A stretch of 64,000 nucleotides of DNA from the NCBI GenBank assembly GCA_003971905.1, contig RSEE01000005.1, forward strand, positions 310,001-374,000. Reading direction: 5' to 3'. This document shows positions 4,312 to 62,605 of the stretch, in pieces. A program made the position numbers and the translations under genes. The notes beneath the pieces were generated by a model. That model ran no database searches and was not told the origin of the DNA. It was given only the letters and a program-made list of their open reading frames with translations. This DNA is from Moniliella sp. 'wahieum'. Its lineage: Eukaryota. Every line of letters begins with the position of its first letter. Position 1 is the stretch's first letter.

Positions 4312-4339
4312 TCATCGATCATCGATCATCGATCATTAA
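4312..4339. repeat. 7-bp period array TCA-TCGA x3 followed by TCA-TTAA
   Basis: tcatcgatcatcgatcatcgatcattaa in the divergent IMG2/SYM1 promoter. Confidence 0.9.
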
Positions 4340-4713
4340 CATTGTGCATCCGCCGCTTTGCCGCATTCTGGTACGCCAGTTGTGTGTGCCCCGTCGAGTT
4401 CCGCGAACCTCCCCAGTCTGGTGTGTTTTGCCACTATGGGAGCCGTGTGTGAGCGGGGTAGGGGGGGGGGTATGCGTACCACATCTAAAGACAGATGCAT
4501 GGGAGCGTGGAGCGTCGCGTAGCGTGGCATTGTGTTGAGGACATTGTATACCGCCGCCGCACCTCCTCTGAGGAACCCCAGGCACAAGCAGCACTCCTGC
4601 CCCACTAGGGTTGGGCCGATCAGTGCGGAGGGTTGGGCTTTTGCTCCACCTTGCTGCTCGGTCGCAGCCCCACCAGCACCACCTGTTGGCCGACGCCCTT
4701 TCAGCGCCAGGCG

Positions 4714-5400
4714 ATGCAGGCGCTCTCCGACGCCCTCACCGCCTCCAGCGCCACCTTTCCTCGGCGCCTCGTCAGCACTGGTGTGCTGTACGGCGCAAGC
4801 GACCTGCTCGCCCAAGCCCTCGTCCGCTCCCCGCCGCCTCCCTCCCATGTCCACGCGCCGACGCGTGTGTCCCGCTGCTGCGCACGCTGGGACGCAGCCC
4901 GCACGCTACGCCTGACGCTCTTTGGCACCCTCATCTTTTGCCCCATCAGCAGTGTGTGGCTCGGCACCGTTCTCGAGCTCGTGCCGCTGCCTGCCGGCGT
5001 GGGGGCGACGGTGGCCAAGGTGGCGCTGGACCAGTTCTTGATGAACCCCGTACTATTGGTGGTGTTTTTGGGGTACATGGGGTTCTTTGCGCCCCTCCCC
5101 CCCCGATGGGGTGAGGGTATGAGCAGTTGGACCTCCTCGGCGCTGCGGGCCCGCACGGCCGCGGCCCACGCCAAAGTCCTGACTGAATTCCGCTCCATCC
5201 TTACCCAATCGTGGCTCGTCTGGATCCCCGTTCAATCCATCACAATGGGCTTCATTGCGCCGGCCAACCGCTTGGTGTTTATTTCCCTCGTCTCGCTATT
5301 TTGGAACGCTCTCCTCAGTGTTCTTACCTCCCGTCCTCCCGCTCCCGCGCCCGAGCCGGAAGAGGATACCCTGCCTCTGACCCAGATCAATGTCGAATGA
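4714..5400 (+). CDS. SYM1: Mpv17/PMP22 family membrane protein (Sym1-like)
   Basis: VSTGVLYGASDLLAQ, WDAARTLR, KVALDQFLMNP, SWLVWIPVQSITMGFIAPANRLVFISLVSLFWNALLS. Confidence 0.85.
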   Translation: MQALSDALTASSATFPRRLVSTGVLYGASDLLAQALVRSPPPPSHVHAPTRVSRCCARWDAARTLRLTLFGTLIFCPISSVWLGTVLELVPLPAGVGATVAKVALDQFLMNPVLLVVFLGYMGFFAPLPPRWGEGMSSWTSSALRARTAAAHAKVLTEFRSILTQSWLVWIPVQSITMGFIAPANRLVFISLVSLFWNALLSVLTSRPPAPAPEPEEDTLPLTQINVE

Positions 5401-6122
5401 TCTGATCTGTCTGGGGCCCCCAGGTGCCACGATCGGCTGTCCGTCGCTCCCGATATGCTGCCGGGGCTTGCCCACAAGCAGGAATGGACAATGTATGTTG
5501 TACCTACTGAAACTTATCGCGGAGGCTGGAGGGCGTGAAAGGACAAAGTACCCTCAAAAACAGTAGCACTCCCCTGTGGAGGCCACCATGAGAGAAGCGA
5601 GTCTCTATATCTTTACAGTATAATATAGGCAAAAGAAAGCCAATGGAAACACAAGCAATTGTGTTACCAATAAGGAAGCAATAGGATGGAACAGAAACTA
5701 CGAGGACAAAGGTTAATACTATGAACAAGCCAACACAAAAACGTACAACACGGCATATCTTCTGTGTACTAGTCACCGCCCAGACCGATATAGACATTGG
5801 GCGCATGCTGGGCATCGCTCGCACTGTGTAATACAGGACACCACAAAAGATGGAGTTAGCTCTTACGGCAGTCATGTCCCACAGTAGCCATATATCCCAA
5901 GACATTTTAAGTGTAGATGCAGGAGAGGAGTGAACGCAGAAAGGGTTTGCCCCGATTCGTCATCTGAGAAGAAGAGCAATCCTCATCCCCGCCCTGGAGT
6001 TGGGCCAGGACATCTTCACGATTGTGCTCGGCCAGCGAGGCAGTAAGGTGTTCGTCTGACATCAACCGTGTTACTGTCGGTTGTGGATCTTAGCTCCATG
6101 GCCTTGAGACGGCACTCGCTGA

Positions 6123-6173
6123 CCTGCAATAACGCGCAGCACATCCTGGCCTGCAATAACGCGCAGCACATCC
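6123..6173. repeat. direct tandem duplication, 24-bp unit with 27-bp period
   Basis: cctgcaataacgcgcagcacatcc at 6123 and 6150. Confidence 0.85.
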
Positions 6174-6540
6174 AGCGTTCGGACCCTGGCTCTGGCCGCC
6201 GGGGAGCGCACGTACCAGTGCACCAAGGGGGCTTCCTCCATCTAGGACGCCCCCATCGCTGCCAGCTTGCGAGTTGCTATGCTGTTGCTGGCACAATGGC
6301 ATGTGCATTGAATATTGACGACACACAAAATGTCCTAATGCGGACTCCGTACTCACATGTCAGCAACGCTCCTCCCTCTACAGGGCGATCTCAGAGCTTC
6401 TGTCAAAGCTCGTAACGCGTGGGTGAACAGTATCTCACGATCTCATCCTGCATCATGCACAGCATGTACCAGACGTACGTGTATAGGGGGTGTGCCAGCG
6501 GTGAGGTAGGGTTTCGGAAGTTGATATGCTCAGTCTGGGC

Positions 6541-6632
6541 CTGAGCGCCAGAGTGCGTGAACGGCTGAGGCTGAGCGCTCAGCCTGAGCGCTCACAGCCC
6601 CCCGGCCCCCTGCTCAGCTTGAGCGCTTAGCC
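6541..6632. repeat. TGA-GCGC-TCA / CTGAGC palindromic cluster
   Basis: ggctgaggctgagcgctcagcctgagcgctca; the same motif type occurs at 14712-14755, 27900-27930 and 59862-59935. Confidence 0.8.
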
Positions 6633-7889
6633 GATCTATCCCGCCGGCATCCGCTGGCGTCCCACACGAGCATGCGAGCAACTCGATGTCTGTGGCGATG
6701 ATAAATGGTACCTTGTTGGAACCATGGACAATCCTTTTGGACATCGACCAAGGGTGTGGCATCTGTGACAGGCTGGCCCCAAACAAACCTTTTCGTGTTG
6801 GACCTTTTCGTGTTGGACGGGGTGGCCTAGGGTGGCCCCCGGGGGGGGAGTTACCCGGTTGCGCGCGAAGAAAAAAAATATGGCAGAGCGGGCGGAGGCG
6901 CTGGAAGCTGGGAAGGGCCAAACGAGATGTCAGCATGTCAGGCCCATCAGGCAGGAATATCAGGATCTGCAATGATATCCCAGTGGTATCCCTAGTGACG
7001 CATTGCGTGAAAACGACAGTGCTGAGTAAGGAACTCAGTGTTGGTTCAGACATTTGAGAGAAGGTGGCCGATGATGTTATCCCTGAAAAGATCGAAGAGG
7101 CAGATCCTGGCAGATCCGGTTTCAAATTTCAGGGAGAGTCCAGGAGAGCTCAGCCGAGGCTCAGCGCCTCAAGCGGCAGAGAAGAAACAAGACGAGCTTT
7201 GGGAAGTGGGATGATTTCGATGGACAAGCGACATTTCCTCTGCTGAGCGCGCTGAGTGCGAACTAGTGCTGACTAGGTGGTTGATGGCGTGGTAGGGTTT
7301 GGTCCAGTGCATGTCCTTTGGTCTTGACGTCCTCCGCAAGCCCCATGGAGGAGAGATGGAGCCAGTGTGGGGCCGTTTGTGGGACGTCCGACGGTGCAAA
7401 GGCGCGTCGGCGCGCCCGACGCGTAACCCTGGCGCCCCCCAGTGTCGGACGCCAGGGCACCCCAACAAACGCCCCGCGCAGGGGCAGTGCGTTTGGCTGC
7501 AACTGGCGTGCGGCTGGGAGGATCAGCTGCGCCCTGGTGCCTGCTCAGCATGCCCAGGCACCCTGGCAGTGTGTTTTCACGCTCGGCCACGGGGCTTGCG
7601 TCTCGGGGCAAAGCAGGCTCGGCGCAGTGTCCAGCCACTGCTACGTAACTCTCGGCTGCTGGTCGGGGGGACGGGCCCGCACGGCGGCGGTGTTGTGATA
7701 AGACTGGGCCAGACCAGGCAGACTAGGCCAGACTGCCCGTAGCAGCAGCAGGCAGCCGCCGTCGGCAGCCACGCCATCTTCTTCTCCCCCACACCTTCTC
7801 TCTCCAGTCTCCTCTCTCTCCACGTGCCCGCCCCTCCTCCCCCTCCTCCCCCTCCCTTCTCTCCCTGATCCTGCAGCTCCCGCCACTCT

Positions 7890-9720
7890 ATGGCCAACCA
7901 CCTCTCTCCCGAGCCCACCGCCGTGGCCGGCGAGGCCAAGACCCCCATCTCCGATATCGATATCACCGGCGTCCAGCCCCTCTCTTCCGCCTCTGGGTTC
8001 GACGAGAAGCATGCCGATGAGCCCGTGTTTGAGTCGCGCAACCATGAAAGCTCCGCATCCGACGTTCTCGCCCTTCTAACCCAGGGCGACACCGAAAGTC
8101 AGTTTTCGCTTCTGGAGAACAAATTTGTCCTTGCCTGCGCCTTTTTTGCCTCCCTCTCCGGTTTCCTCTTTGGTGTCGACCAGGGTATCATGAGCGTCAC
8201 TCTCACCATGGACCACTTCCTCGCTCAGTTCCCCAAGGTCGCTCCTGGCCACCACAGTGCCGGTCTTTACAAGGGCATCGTCACTGCTCTCCTCGAGCTG
8301 GGCGCCGTCATTGGCGCGATCATCGCGGGGTATGTGGCGGACAAGCTAGGCCGTCGGCGTTCCATCCAACAAGGTGTCGTCTGGTTCACCATTGGCGCCA
8401 TTCTCCAATGCAGCTCGTACGATTATGCCCAGTTTGTTGTCGGTCGCTTCATTGGTGGCATCGGAATTGGTGTTCTGTCCATGACTGCACCTCTCTATAT
8501 GGCCGAGATTGCTCCCACGTCGATCCGCGGCTTTGTGTTGGCTTCGGAAGAGTTCTCAATTGTGGGTGGCATTGTGGTGGCGTACTGGTTCACCTTCGGC
8601 ACGCGCTACATTGATTCCGACTGGTCTTTCCGCTTGCCACTGTTGGTGCAGATGGTTCCGGGCATTCTGCTCATGGGGCTCAGCTTCCTCCTACCTGACT
8701 CGCCCCGTGGTGGGTCCAAAAGGGTGGGCCCGAGGCGCACCACCAAGCTCTGCTGATCGTGGCCAAGCTGCGCAACCGGAGTACCGAGGATATCCGCGTC
8801 CGTGCCGAACTGCTCGAAATTATTGCCCAGGTCGAGCTGCAACAACAACCAGTCGCGAACGGCACCCGAACCTCCACAAGCCCAACGTACGTTACCGTCA
8901 GCTGAAAATGGAAGTGGCTGCCTGGATCGACTGTTTCCGGCCTGGGTGCGCCAAGCGCACGTGGATTGGTATCACCATCATGTTCTTCCAACAGATGATT
9001 GGTATCAACAGTCTGATTTACTATGCTCCTTCGCTGTTTCAGCAATTGGGATTGGCTTACAATCTTCAGCTGGAGCTGAGTGGTGTGACCAACATTGCCC
9101 AGTGGGTCGGCGTCATCATCTCTCTCTTCTTGATGGACCATGTGGGCCGCAAACCGCTGTTGCTGTGGGGGTCGGCTTGGACGACCGCTTCGCTTTGATT
9201 GTGGCCGTGTTGACGGGGCTTTACCAGCACAGCTGGCCTGAGCACCGCGCGGCCGGCTGGGCTGGTGTCGCAATGCTGATTGTGTATGGTCATGTACGGC
9301 GTGTCGTGGGGCCCGATTGGGTGGGCCATGCCCAGCGAACTGTTCCCTCAGTCGCTTCGGTCCAAGGGTGTGGCCTACGCGGTGATCAGCAATTGGTGGT
9401 GGAACTGGGTCGTGGGGATCATCACCCCCGAGTTGGTCAACAAGACGGGGTATGGCGCGTTTGTCTTTTATGCCTGTTTCGCCGCCGTCTCCATCCCTTG
9501 GATCATCTTCTGCCTCCCAGAAACCAAGGGGGTCCGGCTGGAGGATATGGATCGTGTCTTCAACGACCGAACGGGACAAGAAGATCGTGCGAAGCTCGCC
9601 GCCATCCACCGCCGTCTGGCCACCGAGGCGTGCCGACCAAAGGGAGAGGTTCCCTCGGACGAACCATTGAGCACCACCTTTGCCGAGTCGCAATGGAAGA
9701 GTCAGACGAGCGAGAACTAA
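7890..9720 (+). CDS. MFS sugar porter (hexose/polyol transporter family)
   Basis: GFLFGVDQG, ADKLGRRRSI, GRFIGGIGIG, PLYMAEIAPTSIRG, FQQMIGINSLIYYAP, MDHVGRKPLL, WAMPSELFP, LPETKGVRLEDMD; several frameshifts between 8700 and 9290. Confidence 0.95.
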
Positions 9721-10859
9721 GGGAGCCGCATTCTTCTTTACGCCTCTGCCTTGACCGCCCATATCACACTGCCTTGCAATCCTTTCACCTTCTTTCTCAT
9801 GGGCCACTGCCTCTTTGATAGCCATATTGGGCGGTGTCACGCTCCCGTTTTTGTGACATCGCCTTACTGGAATGGCCTCGCTATCCTGGGGTTGATGTAC
9901 TGTCACTTGCACCTCTGTGCCAGAGGCCCTACATTCTCTTCCAAAAGTGTCTCCGCCCCCAACCCTTCGTTTTTCCTCCCACTGATCCAAGCCGCACAGG
10001 CGAAGATCATTGGCCTCGTGAAGAGTTCCCAGCATCATATCTACTTGCATACCCCGTTGTAAGTTCTTTTGTTATGCCCCTCAATTCCTTGCACGCCCAG
10101 CTGTTGAGGTAGGCTACTGGGTGGACCGTGCCCCTCCCCCCGCCCTCGATTTCCTAGATGGCTTGCGTCTTCCATCCCCATCCGCCCCGACGTTGCTCAC
10201 GCCTCTCATGTCCACACGCCCCCCAGTGCGGCCCAGGTCGTCTTCCTCACGCCCGCTAGCCAAAAGAATCAGCATCTTGCATTTGCCACCGTGACACAGT
10301 TGCCCTGGGCTTCCTGGAGCACCTCAGGTGCCAAGACAAGTGAGAATGGTAGCAGTTTTGTTGGATGCCGCTGGTCTGATACTGGCAGAACCCTCCCCCG
10401 GCATCTCTGTCGCATTGCTGGCCTGAGCTTCGCTCTTCAGAGGTGGCACAGGATTGGTACCTGCCTGAGGCCTGGTCTCGCCACACCGCCAGAATCCCGT
10501 CTTGTTCGCTGCATCCTCCCGCAACGTCTCGGCCAGGACTGGAGCCATGAACGCTCAGCCGACGGTACTAAAGCGCCGCCGTCGGCGTCTATAACCTTGG
10601 CAGAGTAGCCGCCCATCCCTACGTTGCGCTTCGTGCGTGGCTGGCTGGCGATAAAGCACGTTCCCGGCTCACATCGGCCCTGGTCACGCTGCGAGATGTC
10701 TATGCCGAGCTTTGTGAGGGGTTCGGATTCTCCAGGTGTCTGTACACTGTGCACGCTCTAGTCACTGTGGTCTGCCGTATTATAGGGGCAAATGGGGAAC
10801 AGGCGCGTCCATAGCAAAGAACAGGTAGAACAGAGGAATTGGAAAGGCAAAGGGATTTA

Positions 10860-12075: not shown

Positions 12076-12760
12076 GGTGGCCGACCAGTGGGCGGACTCA
12101 GCGTCGATGGGGGTGGTGGGAGCGTGTGGGGAGGGCTCGATGGAGCGGCGTCGCGCAGGTGGAGGATGGGTCGCTAGGGGGGGGGCCGTACTGGTGCTCC
12201 GACTGAGTCCCAGTGTGGCCGTGGTTGATTGAACCGCGGCGCTCCTCGCGGGCACGCAGAAATCTGATTGACGTCATTGAGCGTCGTCGGAGCATCAACT
12301 CCCTGAGGCTGTGGCCTGGGGGCTCATTGACCGCATCGACCTCATCGGCCTCATCCATCGTCGATCATCGATCATCCCTATCGACCACTTCCACGTCCTT
12401 CCGGACGATCGGAACAATGCATCAGACTTTACAGACGGCACGCAGGCAGCCTCACCTCCCGCTGGCGAGGGCGCTCTCGTATAGGAAGGACAAGGCAGCG
12501 AGCGCACAGGGATGCGATGGGCGCACAGGCCACCGGACGCAGCGCCCACACTACTCGCTTTGGTTCGCATGGCCCGAACCCAAGCGGCTGGCTGGTGGTG
12601 GTGCCCAACGGCAGTCCCGATCGCGTGGAGTAAATTACCTAATCCACCCCGAACGCGGCAGAAGCCCTGTCGAAACAGCCGACCGGGCCCACCGCACCCG
12701 CAAACAACGAGTGGGGCAGCGAACGCGAGATTGCCACAGTACTGCCCACCATCTGCTGCC

Positions 12761-14323: not shown

Positions 14324-15000
14324 AAGCAAAAGCCCTGATGCAATGCCTATCTGCCTTTGGACTCAGTGAGTCGCCATCGCTAGGCACGTTGAGGGAGATC
14401 TGCTGTAGCTTGCAATCTGAGCCTTGCGCCTGGGGCTACCACAGGCTAGCAGTTATTCAGTGGTCATACTATGTAAAGAGGAAAGTGGGGGGATAATCAG
14501 GTTGTGCGCCACAGTGGCGGGCTGTGGAGAGCTAAAAACAAGAGGAAATGTCATGGTGCGTGTCAACATTCAATCCAGTGCCCCGGCAGAGACAGCCTGC
14601 GACACGGAACTTGGGTTGTTTTCCAGACAAAGAGACCGTGCAGGTCGGATGCCCAGAACAGGAAGCGCGGGGCGGTGACGATTGTTCAATGAACGCATTG
14701 CCCCAGAGGTGAGGGCTCAGGCTGAGCGCTGAGCCAGCGCTGAGCGCCGAGTGAGTATACGGCGCTCTAAGATCTAAGCAGAGCCAGTTGACGCGCGCTA
14801 ACGGCGCGTGTCGGATCGAACGTGGGATGATCGATGAAGCTGAGGCCCACTGGGGAAATGGTTCGACCTGGGGCTCCCGCCTCAGCCTGACTGCGCAGGC
14901 CCAGGAGGCCGGCAGCAGCTGGTTGATGCGAGTGAGTGGGTTGGACCGACACGGCCGAGGCAGCAGCACCAAAAGCAGCACCGAGCACCTCGCAGCACCT

Positions 15001-15035
15001 CGAAGCACCTCGATGCGTCCCGAAGCATCTCGAAC
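15001..15035 (+). promoter_or_regulatory. putative imperfect heat-shock elements upstream of HSP104
   Basis: cGAAgcaTCtcGAAc at 15020-15034 and a similar copy at 15001, about 250-290 bp before the ATG. Confidence 0.35.
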
Positions 15036-15287
15036 CGGCCCGCACTCAGTCGTACTCACTGGAACACGCGTCATCCGCCCAGTGTGCGGATGCGTGACGC
15101 GTGACAGGAGCACGGGCCACACCCATCATCACACGTCACATATCACACGCCACATGTCACATGTCGTCGCTGAGCAGCAGTCCCATTTAAAAAGCAGCCT
15201 ACCCGGCACTCAGCCCCATCTCACCCCCAAGTTGCCAGCAGGCACCCTCTCTCTTACCACCCTTCCTGCCCTCCATCGATCCCCACC

Positions 15288-26655: not shown

Positions 26656-27834
26656 CGCAGGTCGCCCCGCTGGCTCTGGGTGGCTGGCGCATGGCTGATG
26701 GAGTGCGAGGCAGGCTGACTAGCTGGCTAGGCAAGTGACTAGGGGTTGGGAGGTGTACGTTTGCGTGACTGGTCAGGGCAGGCCTGCGCGCACCGATGCT
26801 GCTGACGATGGAGGGGCTTAGGCTGCTGCTGCCCTTGCGGAGGCGAGCCAACGGCAGAGCAGCATCGCGTGGACCACACTCACCTGGCCCTGTGCCCACA
26901 AGGCCAAGCCAGCGCAGGCATAATAGACCGCTGGGGCGGAATATTGCCTGCTGCGCCCTGCGCGGCCATCCAACCACACACGCCTCCTGCCTCAGCCGAC
27001 CAATCTAAAACGGCCGAGGAGATAGCGGCGCACACTTGCGCCATGCCTTGGAGGTGTTGTGACGGCCGGTTCCTCGAAGGGCGATATGCCCCGGACGCCA
27101 GGGTGCTAACACCTGCGATATACGGTAGCAGCCATGCTCGTTCCTGTCCAGCATGTCCCGCCAGGTCCCACGCCCCATCCGGCCCCACCCCAGCTGCTGT
27201 GCCGCATCAACTGGGCGCTGTGCCTCGGGGCCGGTGTCTGCGCAGCCACATCGTACGGAGTGGCTGTGGCTGTGGCAACCCTGAGTAGGCCCCCAGCAGG
27301 GCCCCACGCGGGCCAAGGGCGGCCTGACTAGTAACTGCCCTCCTGCGTGCGGCAGCAATCCATGGGGCTTGGACGCGGCTTGGCGAAGAGGTGGTGTGCC
27401 CCGTGCTAGCAGGGGCTATAGTAGGCGCTTGCCCCGTCCAACATCAAGCTTCAGGCCCAGACCCGCCCACGCCAGCCTTCCGCGATAGGCACTAGTACCA
27501 CAAGCCACTAGCCACTAGCCAGCACTCAAAAGGGGACACACAGCCGATAATCGATACGGCAAAATAAGCAAGCAGCCCCAGGGCAGTAAAATGGTATCGC
27601 AGGGGCCTCAAACAGACAGCACCTGGGCACAGTGTCAATAGCGCTGAGCACCCATAACGCTCGAAGCTATCATCTATCAAAAAGGCTATCAATCACACCA
27701 TCCCCTCCCTCAGTCCCCCATCCCATCGCATCCGCCGTCCCATCCACACTCCGCCCGTCCGTGCCTCCTTTGCCCCGATGCCCCGATGTTTGAGCGCTTC
27801 CATCTCACCAACAGCATCTCCGGCACAGCCATCA

Positions 27835-28015
27835 TCAACGTTAAACGTTAAATGTTCGGCATCGCGTCATCAAGACCTCAACGCTGGCTGAACCCATCAG
27901 AGCGCTCAGGCTGAGCCTCAGCACTGAGCCTCGCCGTGACATCAAGCTTCAAGCTTGAGCTTGAGCTTGACTCAAGCCCCAGCCAGCGCTCAGCATCTCA
28001 GCTTCAAGCCTCAAG
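27835..28015. repeat. cluster of TNA-palindrome arrays (ACGT, GCGC, AGCT spacers)
   Basis: tcaacgttaaacgttaa; agcgctcaggctgagcctca; tcaagcttcaagcttgagcttgagcttgactca. Confidence 0.85.
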
Positions 28016-28830
28016 GTCTTTTTATCCGTCCCTACCCAAACCCATGTCTTCGGCCAGACCTGGCGATTGGCAGTGGGGGGCTTTTGTTCCGGTGTCCGGC
28101 GGGCAACAGTATGTTATCAAGGGCAGTGTTTTCGCCCCTTGCCCTTTGTCCCAACAAGTCGGAATTATGATGGTGTCGCTGTCATACGTAACGCGGTACT
28201 TAGTAGTACACAATCAGTGTACGACTACGCACACATTGACCTAAGGCCTAAGATTCCACTAGGGTGGCAGTAGGGTTATATATTGTCCTTCTTGTTTATG
28301 TGTGCCTGGATGAGGTTCTTGGCTACAATACATATGATGGTAACAGAAGGCGAGATTGGGATGATCGAAGATGGTTTATGTCATGTGTTCTGCCGTGTGA
28401 TCGGCTACGCTACCGGGTTTACCCCCCTTCCTCAAAGAGAGCATGGATTGGCACCCCCCGTGACCAAAGGAAGGAGGGGCGTGCAATTGATACAATAAAT
28501 CCTTGGCGCATCGCACCCCGATGCCTAATACAAGGAAGGAGGCGTACGCGATCAAGAATGGTTCTAGCTAGCTTGCCCAAAGCCCGAATGAAGGAGGGGT
28601 ATGCCAAGCAACGAATTCTTACTCCTCTGCACGTGGATGATCCCACGGCGATCCTACAATAGCTTTATTGAGACTGTCGGGGCTGATGCAGCCGTGCTCT
28701 GCATGATCGTTATTAAGAAAGCGAACAGCCGAGCTGAGCTGTGGGTCTGGACTCACGAAGGATCCGCAAAGAATCCACAAGCGAGATAATCTTCCAGACA
28801 GGAAGATGGTGTCGAGACAAAAGGGTTGTC

Positions 28831-31220: not shown

Positions 31221-31766
31221 GCGTGCAAACTTGTGATGGCAGAGGTACAACGAACCGGAACAAGGGAAAGTGAGATGGTAGCGGAGCCGCAGTAAGTGTT
31301 CTGCCTCCAGAGATGATAGATAGCCCACGTGCGAGCTAGCTGGCGGGCTCCTGGTCGATCCGCGAAGACAAATTGGTCAAAGTTCGAAGGCGGTTGAACG
31401 GTTGAACGGTTGAACGTTTGAACGTTGGTGTAATAAGGGTGTGTTTCGGTGCAATACAATATTGAAATTGCAAGTGGCGCCGTACTTTAATCCGTGTCTC
31501 TATTCCATACGAGAGACCCTGTCCTTGTGCTGCACGGCCATCTTTCCCCCCTTGGCACCGTTCCATACATCATTTACCCCCCCCCTGGACCACCGTTCCA
31601 TAGGCCCCTTTCCCATAGTCAACAATGTCCGCAGTTCCATCGTCCAGAGAGACCTTCACGCCCACACATACAGCATAGGTTAACGTTCCATCATATTCAC
31701 CGTGGCATATATACCATTCTGTAGTCAGTAGCAGGGAAGCATGGCTTGCGCGAGACCTCAGAGGAT

Positions 31767-32266: not shown

Positions 32267-32822
32267 TGGGGTGATGGTTGCGAAGGTGAACTGGACTGGC
32301 CTAGACTGACGGGGCGGTGGCTGCGCGCGCACAACAAGCAGAATGCGACAAGAACGCCAAGTATCAGGGCCGCACCCAAGAACCGTGTTTCCCTTTGGAT
32401 TTGACGACCCGCAGTCCTCCGGGGGGGGAGTTCGAATCCCACTCTCGTCATCATGTGGAAGTGGCAGGCGAGCTAGGCAGGAGTAGGAGTGCTGTGGATG
32501 CAATCAGGGGGAAGGCAGGCCGCGGAGGCGCAACAGGAAGGGGCGGAACAGAGGCGGAACGGGATCGCCTCGCACAATACTATATGCCTCCACCAAAAGA
32601 CAGCGGGCAAGCTGCCTGAGAACTGGATGGAATTGACTACTGAGTCTGAATGGAGAGATGGTTCAACGTTCAACCGTTCACCACGTTACGTTCACCTCTC
32701 GGATGTCTACCACGTTCATCCGTATCCACACGCGCTGTCTTGGGCGTGGGAACGGATGACGTACCAGATGGTCCTGATCTGCCGACGATTCCCTTGGTTC
32801 CGTACCCGGGCTTGGCGCTCCC

Positions 32823-33080: not shown

Positions 33081-34190
33081 TGGACGTTGGACGTTGGACG
33101 TTGTGTCGGCATGTCGTGCTTGCGATGTGATGGGACACTGGTGCAGTGTGCCATAGGCTTAGCCAGCCTCTGGCGCTCCCACCACTTGCACCCGACAGCT
33201 AGCTCCGCTAGTTCCGCCCCGGCGGAAGTCTGGCAGTCCAAGGTGTCTCCTCGTCAAAGCTTCGGCAGTCGTAGCTTACTCTTCCCTCTCTTCCACCCCC
33301 CTCCCTCCTCCCTCTCCGCTACTGTCCCTACTATCACTCACCCGCAATCAATCCCTATTGCCTATTTGACCTAGAGTTCTTGATTGCCGTTTCGCTTAGC
33401 ATCGGGATTCGGTCACATCAGATGCAAGATGCCCCTTGCATGATGCATGATGCATGCGTGATGCATGGTGCACATGATGCAATCGATCATCGATCATCGA
33501 TCATCGACACCATCGGTCTTTCACTTCACTTCAACTTGAAGCTTGACTGGCTCGACTGCGTTCGCAAGCTGCCAGCTGCAAGGGAGATCCTGAGGTTGTT
33601 CCGCTTGACTCGGAGCAGTGCTGCTAGTGATGATCAAATCAATCACTAGTCACTAGTCACTAGTATAAATAGTAAATAGTCCACCTAACTAGTAACTAAG
33701 CAACTGCTCGGTAACCGGTAGCCGATGAGCGGAGCGCGTGAGCGCGTGAGCTCGCACCGTGGTGGAGTTAGGCCTTAGGGTTAGAGGGTAGTACTTGGTG
33801 GCCTGCCGTGGGCGGCGGCCTATGGCGAGCTAGTGACATGCGGCATGCGACGCAGTGCCAGCAGGGTTGTTCAGGCGGGCCTGTCCTCACATGCTGCATG
33901 CTGCACCTCACAGCGTCGCACAGTGGAAGCATGTGGCAAGTAGGCCAGGCCAGGCAGGGCAGGCGCTGGCGCAGTAGGCTGCATGCGATGTCCATCCATG
34001 ATGCATGATCGATGATCAGTGACCCCTTGCATGCAGGGCAGGCGCCAGGCCGGCATCCAAAAACGGCAGCTCAGATTTCACCCATCATGCACCATGCATC
34101 ATGCATCACCGGTCACCCGTGCACCCTCCGCAGCTCCCCCCTGCCCCCAGCATGCCCCAGCATGCCCCAGCATGCCCCAGCACCGCCCAG
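33081..34190. repeat. dense cluster of TNA-palindrome arrays upstream of ZRC1
   Basis: (TGG-ACGT)3 at 33081; TGA-TGCA at 33441; TCA-TCGA at 33483-33507; (TCA-CTAG)3 at 33643; TGA-TGCA-TGA-TCGA-TGA at 33999; TCA-TGCA-TCA-CCGG-TCA at 34099; (ccccagcatg)3 at ~34145. Confidence 0.9.
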
Positions 34191-34263
34191 CACAAAATCT
34201 TTCTCGTCCCCCTCCGCCGCCGCCACCACCCACCACCTCCCCACCTCCCCCCGCCGCCCCGCC

Positions 34264-36151: not shown

Positions 36152-36180
36152 GGGTGGGGCAGGGTGGGGCAGGGTGGGGC
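36152..36180 (+). repeat. (GGGTGGGGCA)3 G-rich tandem repeat
   Basis: gggtggggcagggtggggcagggtggggc. Confidence 0.8.
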
Positions 36181-37277
36181 ACATGAAATTTTGCGGGCGG
36201 GGTGGGCGGGTAGGAGCAGTGCAAGGCAGGGAAGGAAGCGGCAACGGGGTTGACTAGGATTAATGACTGGACGGTGAATATTTGAATAGAGAATCGAGAC
36301 GTTGAAAGCGGACAGAGCGGGGAGCAGACAGTGGAGCGCAGGGCACCGAATGTAAGGAAGGTGTCGGCTATTTGGAAAGACTGGAGATGGGACGGGATCA
36401 GGGACGGCAGCTAGTTTTTAGGCCAATAATTCAAGACCTTCCCAAGGGCCGTTTCAACGTTTTCTTCCGAAGTTGTGATCGCATCATTGATGTCAATCTA
36501 AACGCTAGAATGCTAAACGTGACTAGACCAAGGGACGAGTAGCTTACAGAGACCAATGCGCTGCTCAATTGAGGGTTAATTAGTAAGGGGGCATATGCAT
36601 GTGGGTGGGCGCATGGACAAGGAGACTGCTGCCGATGCGGAGTGCGGAGAAAAATAGCGATGGTCTTTCAACTGTTCAACTGTTTAACGTTTGGCTTCCA
36701 AATTCCAGGCCCGATCGATGATGGATGATGGATGATCTCCTGCGCCAGTGTGACATGGGATTGCATGCGACACGTGACATATGATTGCGAGCGCGGGCAT
36801 ATCGGACATGCGACAGGGCCACCGCCTGTCCACGCTGCTCCATGCGGCGCCGGAGCGGGGTGACCGGTGAGGAGCGGGGGGGAGGGGCGAGGTGGATGGC
36901 AGGGCAAACGGCCATGGCCATCGGCGCTCCCTACGCACATCGGCGGCGACGGAAGGGGGAGGGGAGGGGAGGGGAGGGCTGGGGCAGCAGGCAGGCGTGC
37001 CGACACGTGGGCGTGATGGGCGCGGAGACCAACCACACCAACACCAGCGCACAGCCCAAATTAACAAGGCGCATATATGCCGCTTGTTCCGCCAGCTGAT
37101 CGTTGATCGTCGGTTGATCGGTTGATCGATCATCCTGCCTCGACGCCCGCCGTGTGGCTTGGCTCTTCCGGCGGCTTGGGCACTGGGCTTGGCTAAGCTA
37201 AGCGTTCAGCCACGCTCCTCGCCACCGCCACCGCCACCGGCCACCCGCCACCCCCCCCCCTCTGCCGCCTCGTCCCC

Positions 37278-41024: not shown

Positions 41025-41105
41025 GTCATGTGACCATCACAGGTCATGGGCCGGTCATGATGCATGATTCGTGATCACCGGATGTCTGGTGACCGGTGAC
41101 CTCAC
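41025..41105. repeat. TSA-palindrome cluster upstream of NOP9
   Basis: tcatgatgcatgattcgtgatcaccgg and tgaccggtga. Confidence 0.7.
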
Positions 41106-43872: not shown

Positions 43873-45653
43873 GCAATGTTTGGCCATGATTCCATCTTGT
43901 TCCCTTTACTATGTACTGCCCCATCAGTTATGGAGAACTATGGAAGTAGAGTTCAAAATGTGTATAGAACAGCGGAGACGGGATGTCGTTATATAGCGCT
44001 AAAAGTAGGGGGGGGAGTTCTCTGTTTGCTGGCCAAGGCCGCAGTCCTTCAAACCCATCAAATGCAAGACTTCCTACTGATGTTCACTGCCCCACGCCCC
44101 GCTGCCAGCCAATTTGGTACTAGAAGGATTCCTGGGTGGGGGGGATAGCACCTGACGGTATGATGGGCGGGCCGATAGTGCATTACACTGGACATGCTCA
44201 CACGCTACTCTCTCTTTCCTTCCAGGGCAAGTCCGTCGGAGGCAATCGGCCTATATACGTTGTGGTTGGCAACTGACCATAAACGTTCAACCCGCAAACC
44301 TCTACCGAGCCCTCTTGACACATCCATCAGTCAGACCAACCAGGCCTCGTATAACTGTGCCAGTGGCAGCTTCTTGACCCTCCGCTCTCACGCCAAAAGC
44401 ACAATGGCAAACTGAGCCAGGACCGTGGCATTTTCCACCACATACTGTCCATATGCACCTGAAGCCGCAAAGGAGGTGCCCTTAACGATTCTGCTGCGTA
44501 CCACATATCTGCCCAGCGGATCGAGCGCGTCGGAGCAGTCGTCCACCGATTTTGGTTAGCAATCCAGATGTGGACTTCAACCATGTCCTCCATCGTGCCG
44601 CGAGAGAGACGCTCTTGTTGGGGAGAGAGGTTAGTGGCCGTACATGTGCATGTGGTTTGGCAAGGTGTGAGTGCGAACACAGCCCCAAGAGTACCTCTCT
44701 CCAAATGGGATGGTTGAAGATGATCTGGTGTACAGGGGGGCTGGGCGTTTTGAACTTCGGGCACCTGTACCATTTACTGTGCTTTATGCACCACAATAGT
44801 ACCAAAACTTGACTCCGCTAGCACAATGCGTTGAGATCAAAACGGGGTCTCCGTATTGTGCTAATGCCCCTCCACCATTGGTAATTCCAGCGCCCGTTCT
44901 GTCCACACAAATGTCTGATGGTCTGTTGCGAAGGGGGATTAAAAGCGCTTGAGTCCGGGAGACCAAAGGCCTCACTAAGACGCCAAGCTTCAAGCTGCGT
45001 GAGCTTCAGGTGAAGCCTGAGGCTCAGGCCTCATGCGTAGGATGGTCGGTTGGAGAGAACGGACCTGAGAAGTGCACAAAGTATGATGGGCGTCTGCACT
45101 CCTTGGCATAGTCCACTGGCCAACAATGCGAATGGCCACTGCCCCTGTCACTTTGTTCTCCAAACTCCCTTCCGATTAGATCCCCACACGTACAATTCTT
45201 GATCGCCAATGGCTCTGGCTGTTACCAGACTCCGCAGGCTGTGGCTTGGATAGGACACTACGATATAGTGACTGTATCATGCGACGACCGAGGCCACAAA
45301 TTACTTTTGGATCTTTATTAATCAGATTCATGGTATTCATTCTTGTCTAATCGCAACGTACCACAACGGCCTTCTTCTCTAACCACATTGGCCCTACACA
45401 ATCTCCCCGGCGGGGTCCACCAGATTGATTCAGCGAGAGATGGGCTGAGGATGGACATATTGTGACGCGTGACAGCCGGATGGCTCTGGTATCCGTCAAA
45501 TCGTCACAGGGCTCTGCAAACGACACCTGCAAAAATGATGGGACTGAGGGGGTGGCGGACGTGTCGGCCTGATCCACTCAACGTACTCAGCAGCTCCACA
45601 TTTTCTTTCGAGACATCGCTCCGTTAGCCCGCGAAATTTGCAAAAGGGCATGT

Positions 45654-45681
45654 TCAACGTTCAACGTCCATGCATCGTGCA
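45654..45681. repeat. in-register array TCA-ACGT-TCA-ACGT-CCA-TGCA-TCG-TGCA
   Basis: tcaacgttcaacgtccatgcatcgtgca. Confidence 0.85.
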
Positions 45682-50489: not shown

Positions 50490-51876
50490 TGTGAGAGGCG
50501 AGCACTCAACATTTCTTCACTATTTCTCTTCTTTCTTCTCTCCAGTCCCTTCTCCCCTGTGGTTCCATTTTCTTTCCCCCTTTTGTGAGCCTGGAAAACG
50601 GAGTGTATGGCAAGCATGACACTCACTGCCGTTCCTGCCTGAGACCCTCATGGCCTTTTGTTTATTCCCTACTACTTTTCGGCCAACCCAGGACTACACT
50701 ACGATTTGACACTTTCACAGGCTTACTAGGGCCGAAGTCCCTCTCCTCCTTCTTTCAGGAGGGGGGTACTTACGGCTTGGTTAGTAGGATGGCAAGTGTG
50801 AGGAAAGAAGGTGAGAACAGGACCGACAGGGGATGAGTACGATATGCTGGTATATGTACAAACAGTATATGCATTACATTACAAAGTAACAGCTTGCTGA
50901 TGGAGGGACTGTCGGCACTACCGTCCATACACTTACTTGATGCTAGCGAATTTGGTCTCAATACTTTCTGAGATTATGGAGTGCTTGCCCAGCTCGCCTC
51001 ACAGGCAAGATCAGACGCACAGGTCTCGGATCTCTCGCGCGGGGAAGGAAGTGGTGGCATATTATTATTGTTGTAAGAAGCCAGGGCGGCAAGACGCTCT
51101 GTGGGGGTGCCCACCAAAGCGGGAGGATCGGTCAGCGTCTCCTCCGTTAGCCAAAAACCAAACCACCCAGCTTTGATCCGTGGAGAGAAACCGGGGTTGC
51201 GTGCCAAAAATGACCGAGAACAAAAGTGAGGAGAGCCACGTCCTTCTCGAGTACTGTGGGTACTGTTGGTATTGTGGGGCCGTCGGGTGCTTCGCCCCCT
51301 GGTTTATCGTGAGGCAGGCCCACTGTGGAGAGGGGATCTGCCCCTGATATAAGCCCTTGGACGTCGTATTAGTATTTCTATTAGGATGAGAAACAAGACG
51401 GGACCCTAAGGCCTAACGCGTAACGGAAGAGCTAGCGCTATCTACTAAGTACAGTAGGCTAACCGCACGACTTTGCAGAGCGATATAAGATAGACGTGAG
51501 TCTCGCGAATTCATATAAGCGTAAGTACTAAAGAGGGGAGAAGTTGAGGGTGAACGTTAAACGTTAAACAGAGACCCATAGAAGGTTGTAAGAGCTTTAC
51601 AGAGAGTTGTTAAGACTGAAACCGCTTTGAAGGGGAGGCTGACGGATGACGCTGCGTACAGCAAGGACAGAGGCTGTAGCGGAGGGCTGTAGCTGAGACA
51701 CAGCTGCATGTGCATGCACCCCCACCTCTTTTTCCCCACACCAATTAAACATCTATTACCTGGCAGATAAGCATATTGTCAGGTAACGGGGTACCGTGCT
51801 GCCGTTGTGGCATCTCTAAAAATATAGCCCCTAGTGCTTTCTCTCGCTTATAGTTCCAAACAACCCCCGCAAGATG

Positions 51877-51932
51877 AACGGTTCGGTTTAGACGTAGCGT
51901 TCCCCCTGTCCCAGCCTTAAGCTCTGTCAATG
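51877..51932 (+). repeat. dispersed repeat family 2, copy 2
   Basis: aacggttcggtttagacgtagcgtt...tgtcccagccttaagctctgtcaatg. Confidence 0.75.
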
Positions 51933-56254: not shown

Positions 56255-56392
56255 CAACTAGGATAACTAGTAACTGAGGAGTACACTTAGTTAGTCACTG
56301 GCTTCACTAGCTAGTCACGCACTGAGGCATTGAGTACTCAGACAGAGTACTCAGTTGCCCAGGGCCGGGCACCGAGTGTGGTGTACTCAGAC
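56255..56392. repeat. TNA-CTAG / TGA-GTAC-TCA cluster
   Basis: taactagtaa, tcactagctagtca, tgagtactca, gagtactca. Confidence 0.7.
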
Positions 56393-58146: not shown

Positions 58147-58870
58147 TGCCTGGCTTCATTAACTTGGAAAGATCAATATGAATTGGGTATGCAAGTACGT
58201 AATCGGGTTACTTTGCAGGTTTCTTTGCACCGAAGTTCAACAGCTTATTAGCGCCTAATAAAATTGGCGTGCGCTCACGCCTGCTCGCGCTCATTAGTCA
58301 CTGTGACAATAGCTGCCAATACTGGTGGCATTCGCGTAACACTGAGGGCAAAAAGAATCACTGCACCTAAGGCTTGCTCATCCAGCTCATCTCTCATTGT
58401 CTTCTTGTACTCTAAAGCCACATCACTGTCAAAACTTCGGCAAGGTCAGAGGAAACGCGTCACCACCATCAGCTGCAGTGAACGAGAAATTGGTCCTCCT
58501 AATAGAGGGGGGTCTATAAGCAAAAAACAAACAAACAAAAACAAGAGCCGATTGATCACGTCTCTATATTCCCAACGAGAGGACCACAGAGCCTACGGCC
58601 CGGTCAGCTGGGGCTTCGCCCCTAACCTTACCACCGTTCCCCTTCGCCACCGTCTCACATGGTCTACCACGTTCAATGGGATCTACGCGCGTAACAATCC
58701 GGTCGGTTTGAGAAAAAGCGAATGGCGGGCGCCATTATAGGGTCCCGACCTGCTGGCTACTCCACTGTTGGGATCCTAATTGAGGTTCGGCCCGAACAAC
58801 CAGCGCATGCCAAATGAGCGAGTCACTCAGTAATGCATGGTTATGCTGTTACGCATTATGCGGTTACCGG

Positions 58871-58932
58871 AACGGTTATATGCGGTTTTATGCGTAGCGT
58901 CTCCTCGTAGTTGTCCCAGCCTTAGAAGCTCC
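58871..58932 (+). repeat. dispersed repeat family 2, degenerate copy 3
   Basis: aacggtt...cggttttatgcgtagcgt...ttgtcccagcctta. Confidence 0.55.
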
Positions 58933-59048
58933 GAATGATCTGCATGAAGGATCTATATACACCGAACTGTGATAGACAAGATGCTTGTTATTTGGTGGGA
59001 CATGGACCGGTAAAAATGATGCCGGTGATGCTGCTACTTAATCTCTGA

Positions 59049-59440: not shown

Positions 59441-60436
59441 GATGGAGGGTGGGTGGGATGTAGGTTGGGAAAGAAGAAAAGTCGGTATAGATGCGTGTTA
59501 TAGGAAAACAAGTGCCAGCACGGGGGGGGGCTCTTATATATTAGCGCCCGCACGGTTGGTGCTGGGGACCAAGCGGGGCACGGGCCATTTTGAGGCCAAG
59601 TTCAGCCTGATGTGGGTGGAGGTACTATACAAAGCTGAGGGCCACAGACACGCCTCTCGCCTCCATCGGACCAGTATGGGAAAACGAAAATGGCTGGTGT
59701 GGCGGTACTCGTGGGCAGGGGCGCTGAGGGCAAATATTATATGAGGGTTGGGGGACCCATCCATGGCCCGCCCCCGCTTCGTATTTGTCGTGGCATCTTA
59801 CCTCCGCATTTTGCGGCCTGTGCGCGACAACACATGGCGGCCCATGCGTCACGCTCCTGTCCTCAGGCTGAGCGCTCAGGCTGAGCTGAGATGCGTCAAC
59901 GTCGTCAATGACGTGAACGGCTCAGCCTGAGCGCAGACGAGCTGGTGTGGTCCTCAGCTTTGCTACCCAACTCTCGTTGAACAGTTCAACTTTAACCATT
60001 GCATTTCATGCTTGCCCCCACAGCCCCCACCCTCCCTCTTTTGCACAGGAATAAGGTTTCGGCGGAAAGTACCTGCGCTCGCCATCGCTTCGAATGGGGG
60101 AAGGTTCTGCTGTCTTCGAGACTGCGGTGTACGTAGAACAATATATTCAGACACTATAGTAACGCGTAATGAGATGTGTGCGCAACCAGCATACAACTTG
60201 TCCAACCTGTCGTTCGAGTTGGTCTCAACATCTACGGTAGCGGTATATGATACTTGAGCTGATGCAGCCACAGGGCCCGCATGTACCATCATATGCATGG
60301 GGGGTGAGCGTTGAAACAAGAGATCAGAGAGGTGAGAGAGCATGTGGAGTCGTGTCGAAGCAAGGACTCAAGAGTCCATATGAGAAAACCCAAGAAAGAA
60401 GAGGTGCATGGGCATGGGCCTTAGCTGGTCACCTCC

Positions 60437-61680
60437 TTACGGGCTGGTCGCGTTGAATTCGGTGTTGAAGACAATGTCCCAAATCATGGACGTGACACCA
60501 ACCCGAGCTCGTAGTTCTTGTAATGGTGTCGAGGTGGAATCGTTTCTGTGCCATGACATAGGAAGGCAGCCGAGAGTGGTGCAACGCCCAGTGCATCGTG
60601 TCGTATCCGACATAGGAGACGAAGGCACCCGCAATAATCCCATTGGCAAATGCGGTAGGCAACACCATGTGAGCAAATCTGGTGAAGGGAGCTTGAAGCG
60701 TAAAAAACAGCACGGGCGGCATCACCAGCCGCAAGCCATCCATAGGGAGGTAATGGTGCACGCCATGCAACAGGAATGAAGAAGTAGGAATGCGGGGCGA
60801 TCGGGAAGGAGGGCATCGACGTGGAAGAGGAACCGATGCAAGCCATATTCCAGTGTCCACATAAGGATGCCACTGAAGCAAGCAACCAAGAGACTAACCC
60901 ATGCCGCGGGCGAGGCATACGGGACTAGCCGAAGGTAAGCGAGCCAACAGGCGGGGACGTTGAAGCAGAGGGGACGGAAGCATACTAAATTGACAGAGCG
61001 CCCGCGCCGCCAGGGTAGCAGCGATGGGCAGCCAATCAGTGGCCGGAACGAACCACTTGGTTTTGGTAACATCTCGAGGTACCATGGCCAAAGAGCGGAG
61101 CCGAACCCTTGACATGACGAGGAATGTGAACCTGCTCGAGATAGAATGTTTTGTCAAAGTTGGCGAACCACACTTGCGGAATCAAAGGCTTGGTGGATCA
61201 AGGAACTGATGCTGTTGCAGATCTTTTGCCGTGTCGTATTATCGGGGCAAAAGTCCTCGGTGATAACGATTTCCTCGTCCTTGCCACTAAAGTCTCCACC
61301 GCGCACCCCACCATACTTCTTGAGCGTCTCGACGTCCACGCCTGAGGCCGCATTTGGGCCAGCGTGGAGGTCTGCTGCTGCTTGGCTTTCGCTAGGTCAT
61401 CGCCGAGGCGAGGCGACCGATAAAGTACTCTTCCAGCACAGCGTACGCTGCCTCTGAGTGCTCGTGGATCTGCGGGTCGGCCATGGCGCCAGTCAGGTCC
61501 TTTCCGCATATGGAAGCAGCAGGTCATCACCCCCAGGGTGATCCTGGACGAATGGGGTCACGTCAAAGACGCGGTCGCCGTGCACAACCCCAGTCATCCA
61601 GCGTTGCATGTGCCAGCAACGTCCTCGGCGCTGAAGAGGCGCACACGGCGGCGCGGCGCGGCATCGGTATTGGTGGCCAT
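60437..61680 (-). CDS. SCS7: sphingolipid fatty-acid alpha-hydroxylase with cytochrome b5 domain
   Basis: DHPGGDD (cytochrome b5), TKTKWFV, WTLEYGLHRFLFH, HGVHHYLPMDGLRLVMPP, YDTMHWALHH, HHYKNYELG, GVTSMIWDIVFNT. Confidence 0.95.
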
Positions 61681-62040
61681 GAATGGAGGGAGATGGAGGG
61701 GGTGGTGATGGTAGGATGGAAAGGGGAGAAGGAGAGAAGGGATAGAGAAGGGCCGGGTGTAACTAGCTGGTTGGCCAAGGGGCCAGCCGCACTGGGTGTT
61801 ATAGTATGGCCTGCGCTGCAGTCTGCCCATTTTTGTCATGGGCCGAACAGGCGCGCTCGCGCAGTGCGCTGCACCGCGCCACTGTTTGCCCCGCAGACAC
61901 GCGTTGTGCGGCCCTGCCTTGCGCGCTGCCACCTCACACGCGGCGAGCCCCAATATACCCCACCCGCGCGGTGCGGCCCAGCAGGGGACACAGCGCCTGC
62001 GCCTGCTGCGCCTCTCGCCCCTTCTCCCCATTATGCATCG

Positions 62041-62605
62041 TCGATCATTAATCATGCATTAATCATCCGCGGCGATGGGCGCATTGGTCAAGATCGCCCG
62101 ACTCGTACCGCGCCGTACCCTGCCCAAATACTTCCGTCGCCCATCCCAGGCCATCCCCCCATCATGCATCAGGCCTCATCGACTATCGACCATCGACCAT
62201 CGACCCATTCTACGCCCAAACCTCGTCTCGCGCGGCAAAAGAGCCAGATCGTTGAAGTTGAACGTCAACCTTGAAGAGCTTGAAGCTTGAAGCTTGAAGC
62301 TTGAAGCTTGAAGCTTGATTAATGATTGCCCACAGCATCGCTGACATGCGTCTACTTTTCCTTCCTGTACTGCTGTATACCCAGAGGTCCCACATCCTGC
62401 ACCATACACCCACGCATGCCAGATCCCAGTGGGATCTGTCTGAGACGACTTGTTGGTTTTTCGTATTGCGCTCGTGTTCTTCATCCATCTTCGAGCTTCA
62501 AGCTTCAAGCTTCACCCGACGGCGAGAATCATGTTAATGATGCATCATGCATCCATCATGCACATGTGGAGTTGCAATGGGCAGACAGTGCAATGAACGT
62601 TTGAA
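62041..62605. repeat. cluster of TNA-palindrome arrays upstream of SCS7
   Basis: TCA-TTAA-TCA-TGCA at 62045; TCA-TGCA-TCA-GGCC-TCA-TCGA... at 62162; (TGA-AGCT)5-TGA-TTAA-TGA at 62281; TCA-AGCT at ~62497; TGA-TGCA-TCA-TGCA at ~62538. Confidence 0.92.

Follow-up and report, generated by a model that had tools for sequence, protein, structure and literature searches.

The closest described relatives of the sequences considered here are templated palindromic insertions. In yeast, fold-back of the nascent strand gives insertions and deletions at short direct repeats, correction of quasi-palindromes to palindromes and elongation of palindromes (rad27 mutants; PMC5677150), fold-back inverted duplications of 5-34 bases arise at breaks (PMC11724301), and in humans insertions that are not due to slippage generate pseudo-palindromic features (PMC3638132). 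The subject of this report is a set of short period-7 arrays in a 64-kb stretch of the genome of Moniliella sp. 'wahieum' (assembly GCA_003971905.1, contig RSEE01000005.1, positions 310,001 to 374,000; the whole of this stretch is called the window below), and these are like the published events in that small insertions create or perfect palindromes, short direct repeats are duplicated and, as proposed below for the window, a strand folds back. Neither a fixed length nor an anchoring triplet is reported in the available parts of those papers, whereas in the window a constant 7-base step, anchored on the triplet T-N-A, is the dominant feature of non-coding DNA in a wild-type genome.

Bacterial genomes also carry heptameric simple-sequence repeats, in which period 7 is reportedly over-represented between genes and which are said often to form inverted pairs capable of folding into hairpins. 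The intergenic excess of period 7 and the inverted pairs are common to both systems. The bacterial arrays, however, include many non-palindromic heptamers and obtain their symmetry from two opposed arrays, whereas the units of the window are each self-complementary around a T-N-A core and belong to a eukaryotic host, with 5 inverted pairs of like arrays among 46 arrays. The target duplications and footprints of cut-and-paste transposons, exemplified by the 7-base GTANTAC duplication of Galileo (PMC4168063), share with the window a direct repeat around a palindromic remnant, a pseudo-palindromic motif and a free central base; they differ in that the 4-base remnant of the window takes all 16 possible palindromic forms, that its core is T-N-A rather than A-N-T, and that no element, transposase or inverted terminal repeat flanked by T-N-A was found in the window. 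Hairpin-forming microsatellites of the CAG/CTG type likewise have self-complementary units and slipped strands that can fold, and a balance of expansion and point mutation keeps their arrays short (PMC7441554), but here the unit is 7 bases rather than 3, copies number 2-6, many units obey one grammar and differing units stand in register. No account of such a grammar in a fungus turned up in a literature search, although its coverage of subscription journals is thin and the absence is therefore unproven. What appears new is an unusually strict and unexplained anchor on known kinds of sequence, namely hairpin-prone short repeats and templated palindromic insertions.

A seven-base rule with a T-N-A core

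A preliminary description of the window had proposed that its intergenic DNA is built from T(C/G)A triplets and a variable palindromic 4-mer with a 7-bp period. We analysed this one 64-kb window as a single sequence, by tabulating every three-base core of the form aNb that is repeated directly at a fixed distance together with the share of its spacers that are palindromic. Two copies of the same T-N-A separated by four bases (N4) occur 102 times, and N4 is palindromic in 55 of them (54%); the other 15 three-base cores with a 4-base spacer give 0-13 palindromic cases among 36-190 each, or 0-11%. T-N-A itself is at chance level with a 2-base spacer (8/31) and with a 6-base spacer, i.e. period 9 (2/59), and cores of 1, 2, 4 or 5 bases scanned in the window gave no palindromic-spacer signal. 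In the narrower form T[CG]A-N4-T[CG]A, which occurs 105 times, N4 is palindromic in 52, against simulated means of 4.1, 3.3 and 7.0 in Markov models of order 1, 3 and 5 (60 runs per order, with maxima of 8, 10 and 12), and the proposed grammar is in this respect borne out.

The excess over a Markov background and the contrast between coding and intergenic DNA, both put forward in the preliminary description as checks on its idea, are also seen within the window. In non-coding DNA (30.2 kb, a crudely defined set whose codon-usage mask is noisy and swallows arrays within spurious open reading frames) the same-N cases are palindromic in 40 of 71, where Markov models predict 1.2-2.0, with highest values of 4 and 8 over 100 runs. 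The comparison with coding DNA relied on pieces supported by Pfam (16.4 kb) rather than on that mask: they contain none of the 74 palindromic hits, as against 15 of the 95 non-palindromic T-N-A pairs. Because 7 added bases put a gene out of frame, the products of such a step would survive outside coding DNA only. That the arrays stem from chance, base composition or an artefact of assembly is scarcely credible. The non-coding excess stands far above the models' maximum, neither the 15 other cores nor other spacer lengths, used as internal controls, show any rise, and arrays of at most 42 bases that differ in sequence are unlike collapse or stutter.

Other measures agree with the scan. Period 7 accounts for 26 of the 107 rows returned by Tandem Repeats Finder. 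Pairs of 6-base A....T palindromes lying one base apart number 24, versus 0-4 at other gaps, with 10 at gap 8, the next array register. Among exact period-7 arrays of at least two copies, 19 of 34 are maximally symmetric under reverse complementation, compared with 11% for random units, and there is no excess of fully symmetric exact arrays at period 6 (2/53) or period 8 (0/11). Since units at different loci share one design, we rejected an ordinary slippage microsatellite; the earlier argument that slippage of unrelated units would not give this picture holds, the T-N-A frame and the self-complementary 4-mer forming a single sharp rule. Among single 7-base pseudo-palindromes the enrichment of the T-N-A core is mild (10.2%, compared with 5.2-7.1% for other cores), and the signal resides in the duplicated form and not in the single pseudo-palindromic heptamer.

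Anatomy of the units

The heptamer consists of a 6-base A....T palindrome and one further base, from which the two symmetry centres 3.5 bases apart noticed earlier follow directly. Head-to-tail exact arrays contain 2-6 copies of one unit; the longest measure 42 bases, and arrays differ in sequence from one another. The sites named in the preliminary description carry the units given for them (TCGA at 4312, GCGC at 6572, CGCG at 15095 and 45463, TGCA at 33441, CTAG at 33643, CCGG at 34106 and 41090, GGCC at 45024 and 62169, ACGT at 45654, GTAC at 56331, TTAA at 62045 and AGCT at 62281), apart from CATG at 15157, where the array ACATGT-C-ACATGT is present with only one full TCA flank. The description was mistaken in missing AATT, ATAT, TATA and GATC, since all 16 four-base palindromes occur among the T-N-A hits, 14 of them with TCA or TGA on both sides; ATAT and AATT are found with TGA/TCA, and GATC and TATA with TAA/TTA.

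The restriction of the middle base to C or G was also too narrow: TCA and TGA do serve as cores, but any base can stand in the middle, and TAA and TTA show the same 7-base spacing. TCA and TGA do not interchange, as had been thought. Neither TCA-to-TGA nor TGA-to-TCA is enriched at a distance of 7, and the middle bases on both sides are identical in 55 of the 74 palindromic hits, which makes TCA and TGA arrays two orientations of one unit. The inverted TCA...TGA arrangement is a minority (8 of 43 single-unit chains, counted by hand).

Six pairs of differing palindromes share one 7-base register (at 34001, 34101, 51409, 62047, 62164 and 62311), which places the constraint on the 4-mer between two T-N-A copies and not on the flanks of one T-N-A. 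In the chain CC-TAA-GGCC-TAA-CGCG-TAA-CG, for instance, both spacers are palindromic and the middle heptamer is not. Of 56 chains, 25 carry a matching half-palindrome at the upstream end and 23 at the downstream end, versus 6% expected, so that many loci are two copies of a 7-base pseudo-palindrome. In a short class of loci, the distance that the 7-base periodicity runs on past the 10-mer falls mostly on 0 or 2 bases exactly. Many loci are accordingly 12-mers, in which a 5-base direct repeat encloses two bases that are the reverse complement of the repeat's own end. In loci extended on one side the opposite flank looks random (no match in 8, one match in 4 and two in none, by hand count), and the strand bias of the 2-base extension (16 versus 8) is not significant. 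No conserved flank was found beyond T-N-A and the palindrome.

Spacers that depart from the rule do so by small steps. Where the same core encloses a non-palindromic spacer, one of the two pairs is retained in 29 of 47 cases, versus 40% expected, as decay of palindromes would give; TCCA adjoins TGCA and TCGA at 33994-34017. Most other period-7 arrays are one step off the rule, with CCA/TGG in place of T-N-A at 27498, 33079 and 62177 and with TGGA as spacer at 36713. The folding program returned stems of 5-6 pairs closed by TGA/TCA triloops, and the six-copy array folds with -13.8 kcal/mol (z -7.2).

Like arrays 100-660 bases apart are more often inverted (5 pairs) than direct (2 pairs), and the cluster at 33.4-34.1 kb has the order A, B ... 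B', A'. Such an arrangement might be read as the worn inverted terminal arms of a small selfish mobile cassette, and contigs of bacterial type from metagenomes do carry inverted heptamer arrays. We nevertheless regard this as very improbable: the numbers are small, nothing gene-like or conserved lies between paired arrays, most loci are single units without a partner, and the bacterial arrays use any heptamer rather than T-N-A plus a palindrome.

Period-10 arrays that do not follow the T-N-A rule lie beside heptamer clusters, namely CCCCAGCATG in 3.8 copies (34144-34192), AGCACCTCGA in 5 copies (14984-15042) and GTGGGGCAGG in 3.8 copies (36144-36181).

Clusters, promoters and neighbouring genes

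The palindromic hits represent 54-56 independent loci, which we grouped by eye into about 17 intergenic clusters (Table 1). The window has a G+C content of about 58%, and its genes are split by introns and eukaryotic in kind, encoding Cdc37, Hsp104/ClpB, PRMT5, NOP9, a sugar transporter, an amino-acid permease, a CDF zinc transporter and mitochondrial ribosomal proteins. The best matches of the CDF protein, at 56-59% identity, are from Parajaminaea, Meira, Jaminaea and Violaceomyces, followed by smut fungi, which places the DNA in the Ustilaginomycotina, with no near relation in the protein collection searched.

Table 1. Positions and composition of the period-7 loci in the window
Positions	Feature	Units or basis
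4312..4336	TCA-TCGA array, 3.6 copies (ATCGAT+C), then TTAA in register; neighbours are a minus-strand Img2-like gene (3253-3609 and upstream open reading frame) and a plus-strand Mpv17/PMP22 gene	sequence, Tandem Repeats Finder
6309..7131	Cluster of single units	TGA-ATAT-TGA 6309; TCA-CATG-TCA 6353; TGA-GCGC-TCA 6572 and 6585; TGA-GCGC-TTA 6620; TCA-AATT-TCA 7122
12351..12376	TCATCGA array, 3.7 imperfect copies, upstream of Cdc37 gene	
14710..15165	Cluster between Cdc37 and Hsp104/ClpB	TGA-GCGC; TAA-GATC-TAA; TGA-TCGA-TGA; TGA-CGCG-TGA; ACATGT-C-ACATGT
27325..28251	Cluster upstream of amino-acid permease gene	TGA-CTAG-TAA; TCA-AGCT-TCA; TCA/TAA-ACGT; (TCAAGCT)2 switching to (TGAGCT)n; TAA-GGCC-TAA
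27498	Variant array inside cluster 27325..28251	CCACTAG x3.4
31391..31426	Period-8 variant, CGGTTGAA x4.2	heptamer GTTGAAC plus one extra base; end is TTGAACGTTTGAACGTT
32661..32680	GT-TCA-ACGT-TCA-AC, then an 8-base step	
33420..34120	Densest cluster, upstream of CDF (zinc transporter) gene; arrays of one unit return inverted, 490-660 bases apart	arrays (TGATGCA)n 33437-33478, (ATCGATC)3.7 33482-33507, (TCACTAG)3 33643-33664; units TGA-AGCT-TGA 33537, TAA-CTAG-TAA 33686, TTA-GGCC-TTA 33768; mixed chains TGA-TGCA-TGA-TCGA-TGA 33999-34015, TCA-TGCA-TCA-CCGG-TCA 34099-34115
36713..37132	Cluster upstream of PRMT5	(GATGGAT)3.4, near-palindrome spacer TGGA; TGA-CCGG-TGA 36861; TGA-TCGA-TCA 37123
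41058..41101	Two units upstream of NOP9	TGA-TGCA-TGA; GG-TGA-CCGG-TGA-CC
45024..45667	Cluster	TCA-GGCC-TCA; TTA-TTAA-TCA; TGA-CGCG-TGA; GT-TCA-ACGT-TCA-AC
51407..51569	Mixed TAA-core chain and further units	CC-TAA-GGCC-TAA-CGCG-TAA-CG; TAA-GTAC-TAA; TGA/TAA-ACGT (AACGTTA x2.4)
56264..56340	Two units	TAA-CTAG-TAA; TGA-GTAC-TCA
62044..62565	Second dense cluster; its TGA and TCA AGCT arrays are an inverted pair, 157-189 bases apart	TCA-TTAA-TCA-TGCA-TTA at 62045; TCA-TGCA-TCA-GGCC-TCA then (ATCGACC)n 62162-62205; (TGAAGCT)6 then TGA-TTAA-TGA 62277-62327; (TCAAGCT)3 62494-62514; ATGCATC x2 at 62540

Many clusters lie upstream of genes, with TCA and TGA orientations mixed inside single promoters. 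All being intergenic, and many standing just upstream of the Cdc37, Hsp104, CDF transporter, PRMT5, NOP9 and amino-acid permease genes, they invite a reading as functional cis-regulatory arrays kept by selection on promoters, in which proteins bind T-N-A every 7 bases or dimers bind the 6-base palindromes. Dimeric factors typically bind six-base palindromes, and T-N-A is constant here while the spacer varies. A protein blind to the identity of the spacer cannot, however, require it to be self-complementary; all 16 palindromes occur with mild preference only, the TCA/TGA orientation varies in a single promoter, copy number is low and many units have decayed, and we consider regulation of this kind quite improbable. 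No fixed recognition sequence of the sort that marks an array of transcription-factor sites is found: only T and A are fixed, while each of the other bases may vary so long as it pairs with its partner. Of the two explanations that the preliminary description had offered, a mutational or synthesis process fits better, whereas nothing speaks directly for the alternative, a protein that reads TSA half-sites; array orientation is, by our reading, not tied to the neighbouring genes, and such a protein is unlikely. The arrays of the form ATTCACG mentioned there for Ustilago maydis found no support in the literature either, the papers that contain both words being unrelated by title and abstract.

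Two narrower functions were rejected. Heat-shock, AP-1 and bZIP sites were sought by inspection, and the arrays are without those consensus sequences. A three-frame stop function, with TGA or TAA every 7 bases, suggests itself because any T-N-A reads as a stop codon on one of the two strands, but by our reading it does not fit the mixed orientations within and between promoters.

Possible origins

The end state is clear: units advance in steps of 7 bases, T-N-A is copied directly, the filler between is self-complementary, and survival is confined to DNA outside exons. Complementarity without a fixed sequence is a rule that only base pairing can impose, which points to a process acting on a self-paired strand, and the direct repetition of T-N-A with the same middle base fits duplication and not inverted copying. 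The most likely origin is an unusual mode of small insertion, perhaps one in which duplication or insertion passes through a hairpin or fold-back intermediate. We lean tentatively towards regarding the arrays as products, neutral or nearly so, of a small-insertion process particular to this lineage, in which 7-base duplications or insertions are aided by self-complementary intermediates; as part of the same reading, and just as provisionally, we take them to be neither genes, RNAs nor protein-binding codes. A tRNA scan of the whole window found none, and Rfam covariance models run over the whole window gave no match at the gathering threshold.

In a process of this kind the elementary event would add 7 bases, so that T-N-A is directly repeated and the 4 bases between become self-complementary. 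As intermediate we envisage a single strand that has slipped or folded back and is stabilised by pairing with itself: one looped-out unit could form 2 pairs around a T-N-A loop, and two units a 5-pair stem with a T-N-A triloop. Where the folded intermediate escaped removal as a flap or loop it would be fixed as a duplication; template switching by fold-back, of the kind that corrects quasi-palindromes to palindromes, might then perfect or create the palindrome, and ordinary slippage could afterwards copy units, up to 6.

Several features of the arrays sit badly with this small-insertion reading. The strict T-N-A core is unexplained, since the other 15 cores are flat and a triloop needs no complementary ends. 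A and T next to T-N-A exceed what composition predicts, although a stable stem would call for the reverse (by hand tally, 26 of 62 units have the spacer form W-S-S-W, where W is A/T and S is C/G, and the disfavoured S-W-W-S accounts for 8 of 62). Short arrays fold weakly, with -0.9 to -5 kcal/mol and z from -1.4 to +1.0, and the stronger hairpins that 6-base palindromes would form at period 9 bring no enrichment. The six same-register pairs of differing palindromes are something that slippage alone cannot make, and the 12-mers with a random far flank resemble P nucleotides left by off-centre opening of hairpin-capped ends. Structure-forming short repeats are, moreover, reported to be constrained and not favoured across eukaryotic genomes (PMC7441554). 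These weaknesses hold our confidence at the tentative level just stated.

Some of these same features would be expected of a cutting enzyme, and we treat as a serious rival, possible though on balance unlikely, the view that a transposase or domesticated nuclease makes staggered cuts at T-N-A and that repair of hairpin-capped ends adds P nucleotides. Each cycle of cutting and repair would leave T-N-A, a 4-base palindrome and T-N-A again, and repeated cycles would build chains, including those of mixed palindromes. Candidate enzymes are a PIF/Harbinger- or IS5-like one with a 3-base T-N-A target duplication, or one with a stagger of 5 or 7 bases; PIF/Harbinger elements make a 3-base T-W-A target duplication. 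Specificity as absolute as that for T-N-A and a 4-base spacer looks enzymatic, a short palindrome between direct repeats is the classical form of a target-site duplication with an excision footprint, the 12-mer class (a 5-base direct repeat with 2 inverted bases and a random far flank) fits P-nucleotide addition at one end, and differing palindromes in one register come about more easily by successive events at neighbouring T-N-A sites. Typical transposon target motifs are palindromic, and the nearest published analogy is the 7-base pseudo-palindromic duplication of Galileo (PMC4168063).

Against such an enzyme stand both the contents of the window and the form of the scars. None of the 232 open reading frames of at least 110 residues in the window contains a transposase domain, none of the 429 inverted 10-mer pairs in the window has identical T-N-A flanks, and no intact or miniature element with a T-N-A target duplication was found within the 64 kb. 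PIF/Harbinger excision is, besides, mostly precise. All 16 palindromes being present, the 4 bases cannot be remnants of the ends of one transposon; P nucleotides copied from an end in T-N-A should produce either N-A-T-N' palindromes or inverted TCA...TGA, and the inverted form is the minority noted above; and a dimeric protein is unable to select arbitrary complementary flanks. In its most specific version, in which a dedicated T-N-A-recognising cut-and-rejoin activity (an active or domesticated transposase, or a nuclease, acting through hairpin-capped ends) writes 7-base scars, each a free but self-complementary 4-mer with a second T-N-A, that accumulate as chains in promoters, we judge the idea unlikely; if true, a eukaryotic genome would here bear a new mutational signature of an enzyme, legible from sequence.

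If the arrays are a mutational record, as the small-insertion reading would also have it, they provide an unusually clean natural signature, with a fixed length, a fixed anchor and a free but self-complementary filler, which could help to trace the origin of small templated insertions and palindromes in a eukaryote and the repair or transposase genes responsible. They may also matter for the evolution of promoters, where the units bring classical 6-base palindromes (ACGCGT, ATGCAT, AACGTT and others) upstream of genes, some of which could become binding sites.

Comparison with metagenome sequences

As a control we used a probe of 21 bases, (TCATCGA)x3, representing the commonest unit, which at least 119 metagenome contigs match. 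In the flanks of 80 matching loci (376 kb, with the seed array masked) T-N-A spacers are palindromic in 41 of 371 cases (11%), and other cores there give 3-12%; the value of 54% in the window is thus not general to DNA with such an array. Many of the matching contigs are GC-rich, and five that were examined from one assembly carry unrelated heptamer arrays in opposed pairs, a pattern reported for bacteria. The contigs L010, L027, L040 and L058 (67-68% G+C), which are those meant in the comparison with bacterial arrays above, have dense heptamer arrays (GTCGTAA, CGAGAAG, ACCAGTG, GGTCACC), mostly in opposed pairs, and their ATCGATG arrays flip to ATCGATC at the centre. Two contigs with fungal domains (NACHT, DUF6540; L026 and L050) carry a few additional units (5 of 16), too few to claim the grammar elsewhere and only a hint that the process may act more weakly in other fungi. 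A further contig, L025, has at 6531-6543 the sequence GCATCATGCATCACCGGTTCC, with the same succession of TGCA and then CCGG in register as the window at 34099-34115.

Other repeats and reading frames in the window

A miniature element of about 120 bases, resembling a miniature inverted-repeat transposable element, is present in two copies at 28839-28960 and 32822-32941, with the ends CATGGCTAATCG.../...CGATTAGCTATG. The copies, separated by 3.9 kb, point in opposite directions and over 83 bases show 98% complementarity; they are flanked by 2-base repeats (TA and CA) and not by T-N-A, and the first copy splits a near-palindromic target at its midpoint, CTAAATATA|TACATTTAG. The open reading frames between the two copies gave no Pfam match. 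A dispersed intergenic repeat with the conserved core TGTCCCAGCCTTAAGCTCTGTCAATGAT has three copies (32945-33017, 51860-51934 and 58870-58939) and occurs also at 32705-32734 and 58662-58691; it gave no Rfam match.

A tandem duplication of 27 bases (2.0 copies, 96% identical) lies at 6119-6173 within the long spacer that precedes the sugar-transporter gene. Antisense to this gene, on the minus strand at 8683-10071, runs a frame of 463 codons that has no Pfam match and is probably a spurious frame in GC-rich coding DNA.

Short open reading frames and start codons predicted within the arrays are probably spurious, and annotation should be wary of them, as in the case of the ATG at 34101 inside TCATGCATCA. 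This ATG, the first of the long CDF-transporter frame, sits within the array TCATGCATCACCGG; the Pfam domain of the transporter begins about 70 codons further on, and the real start codon may lie downstream.

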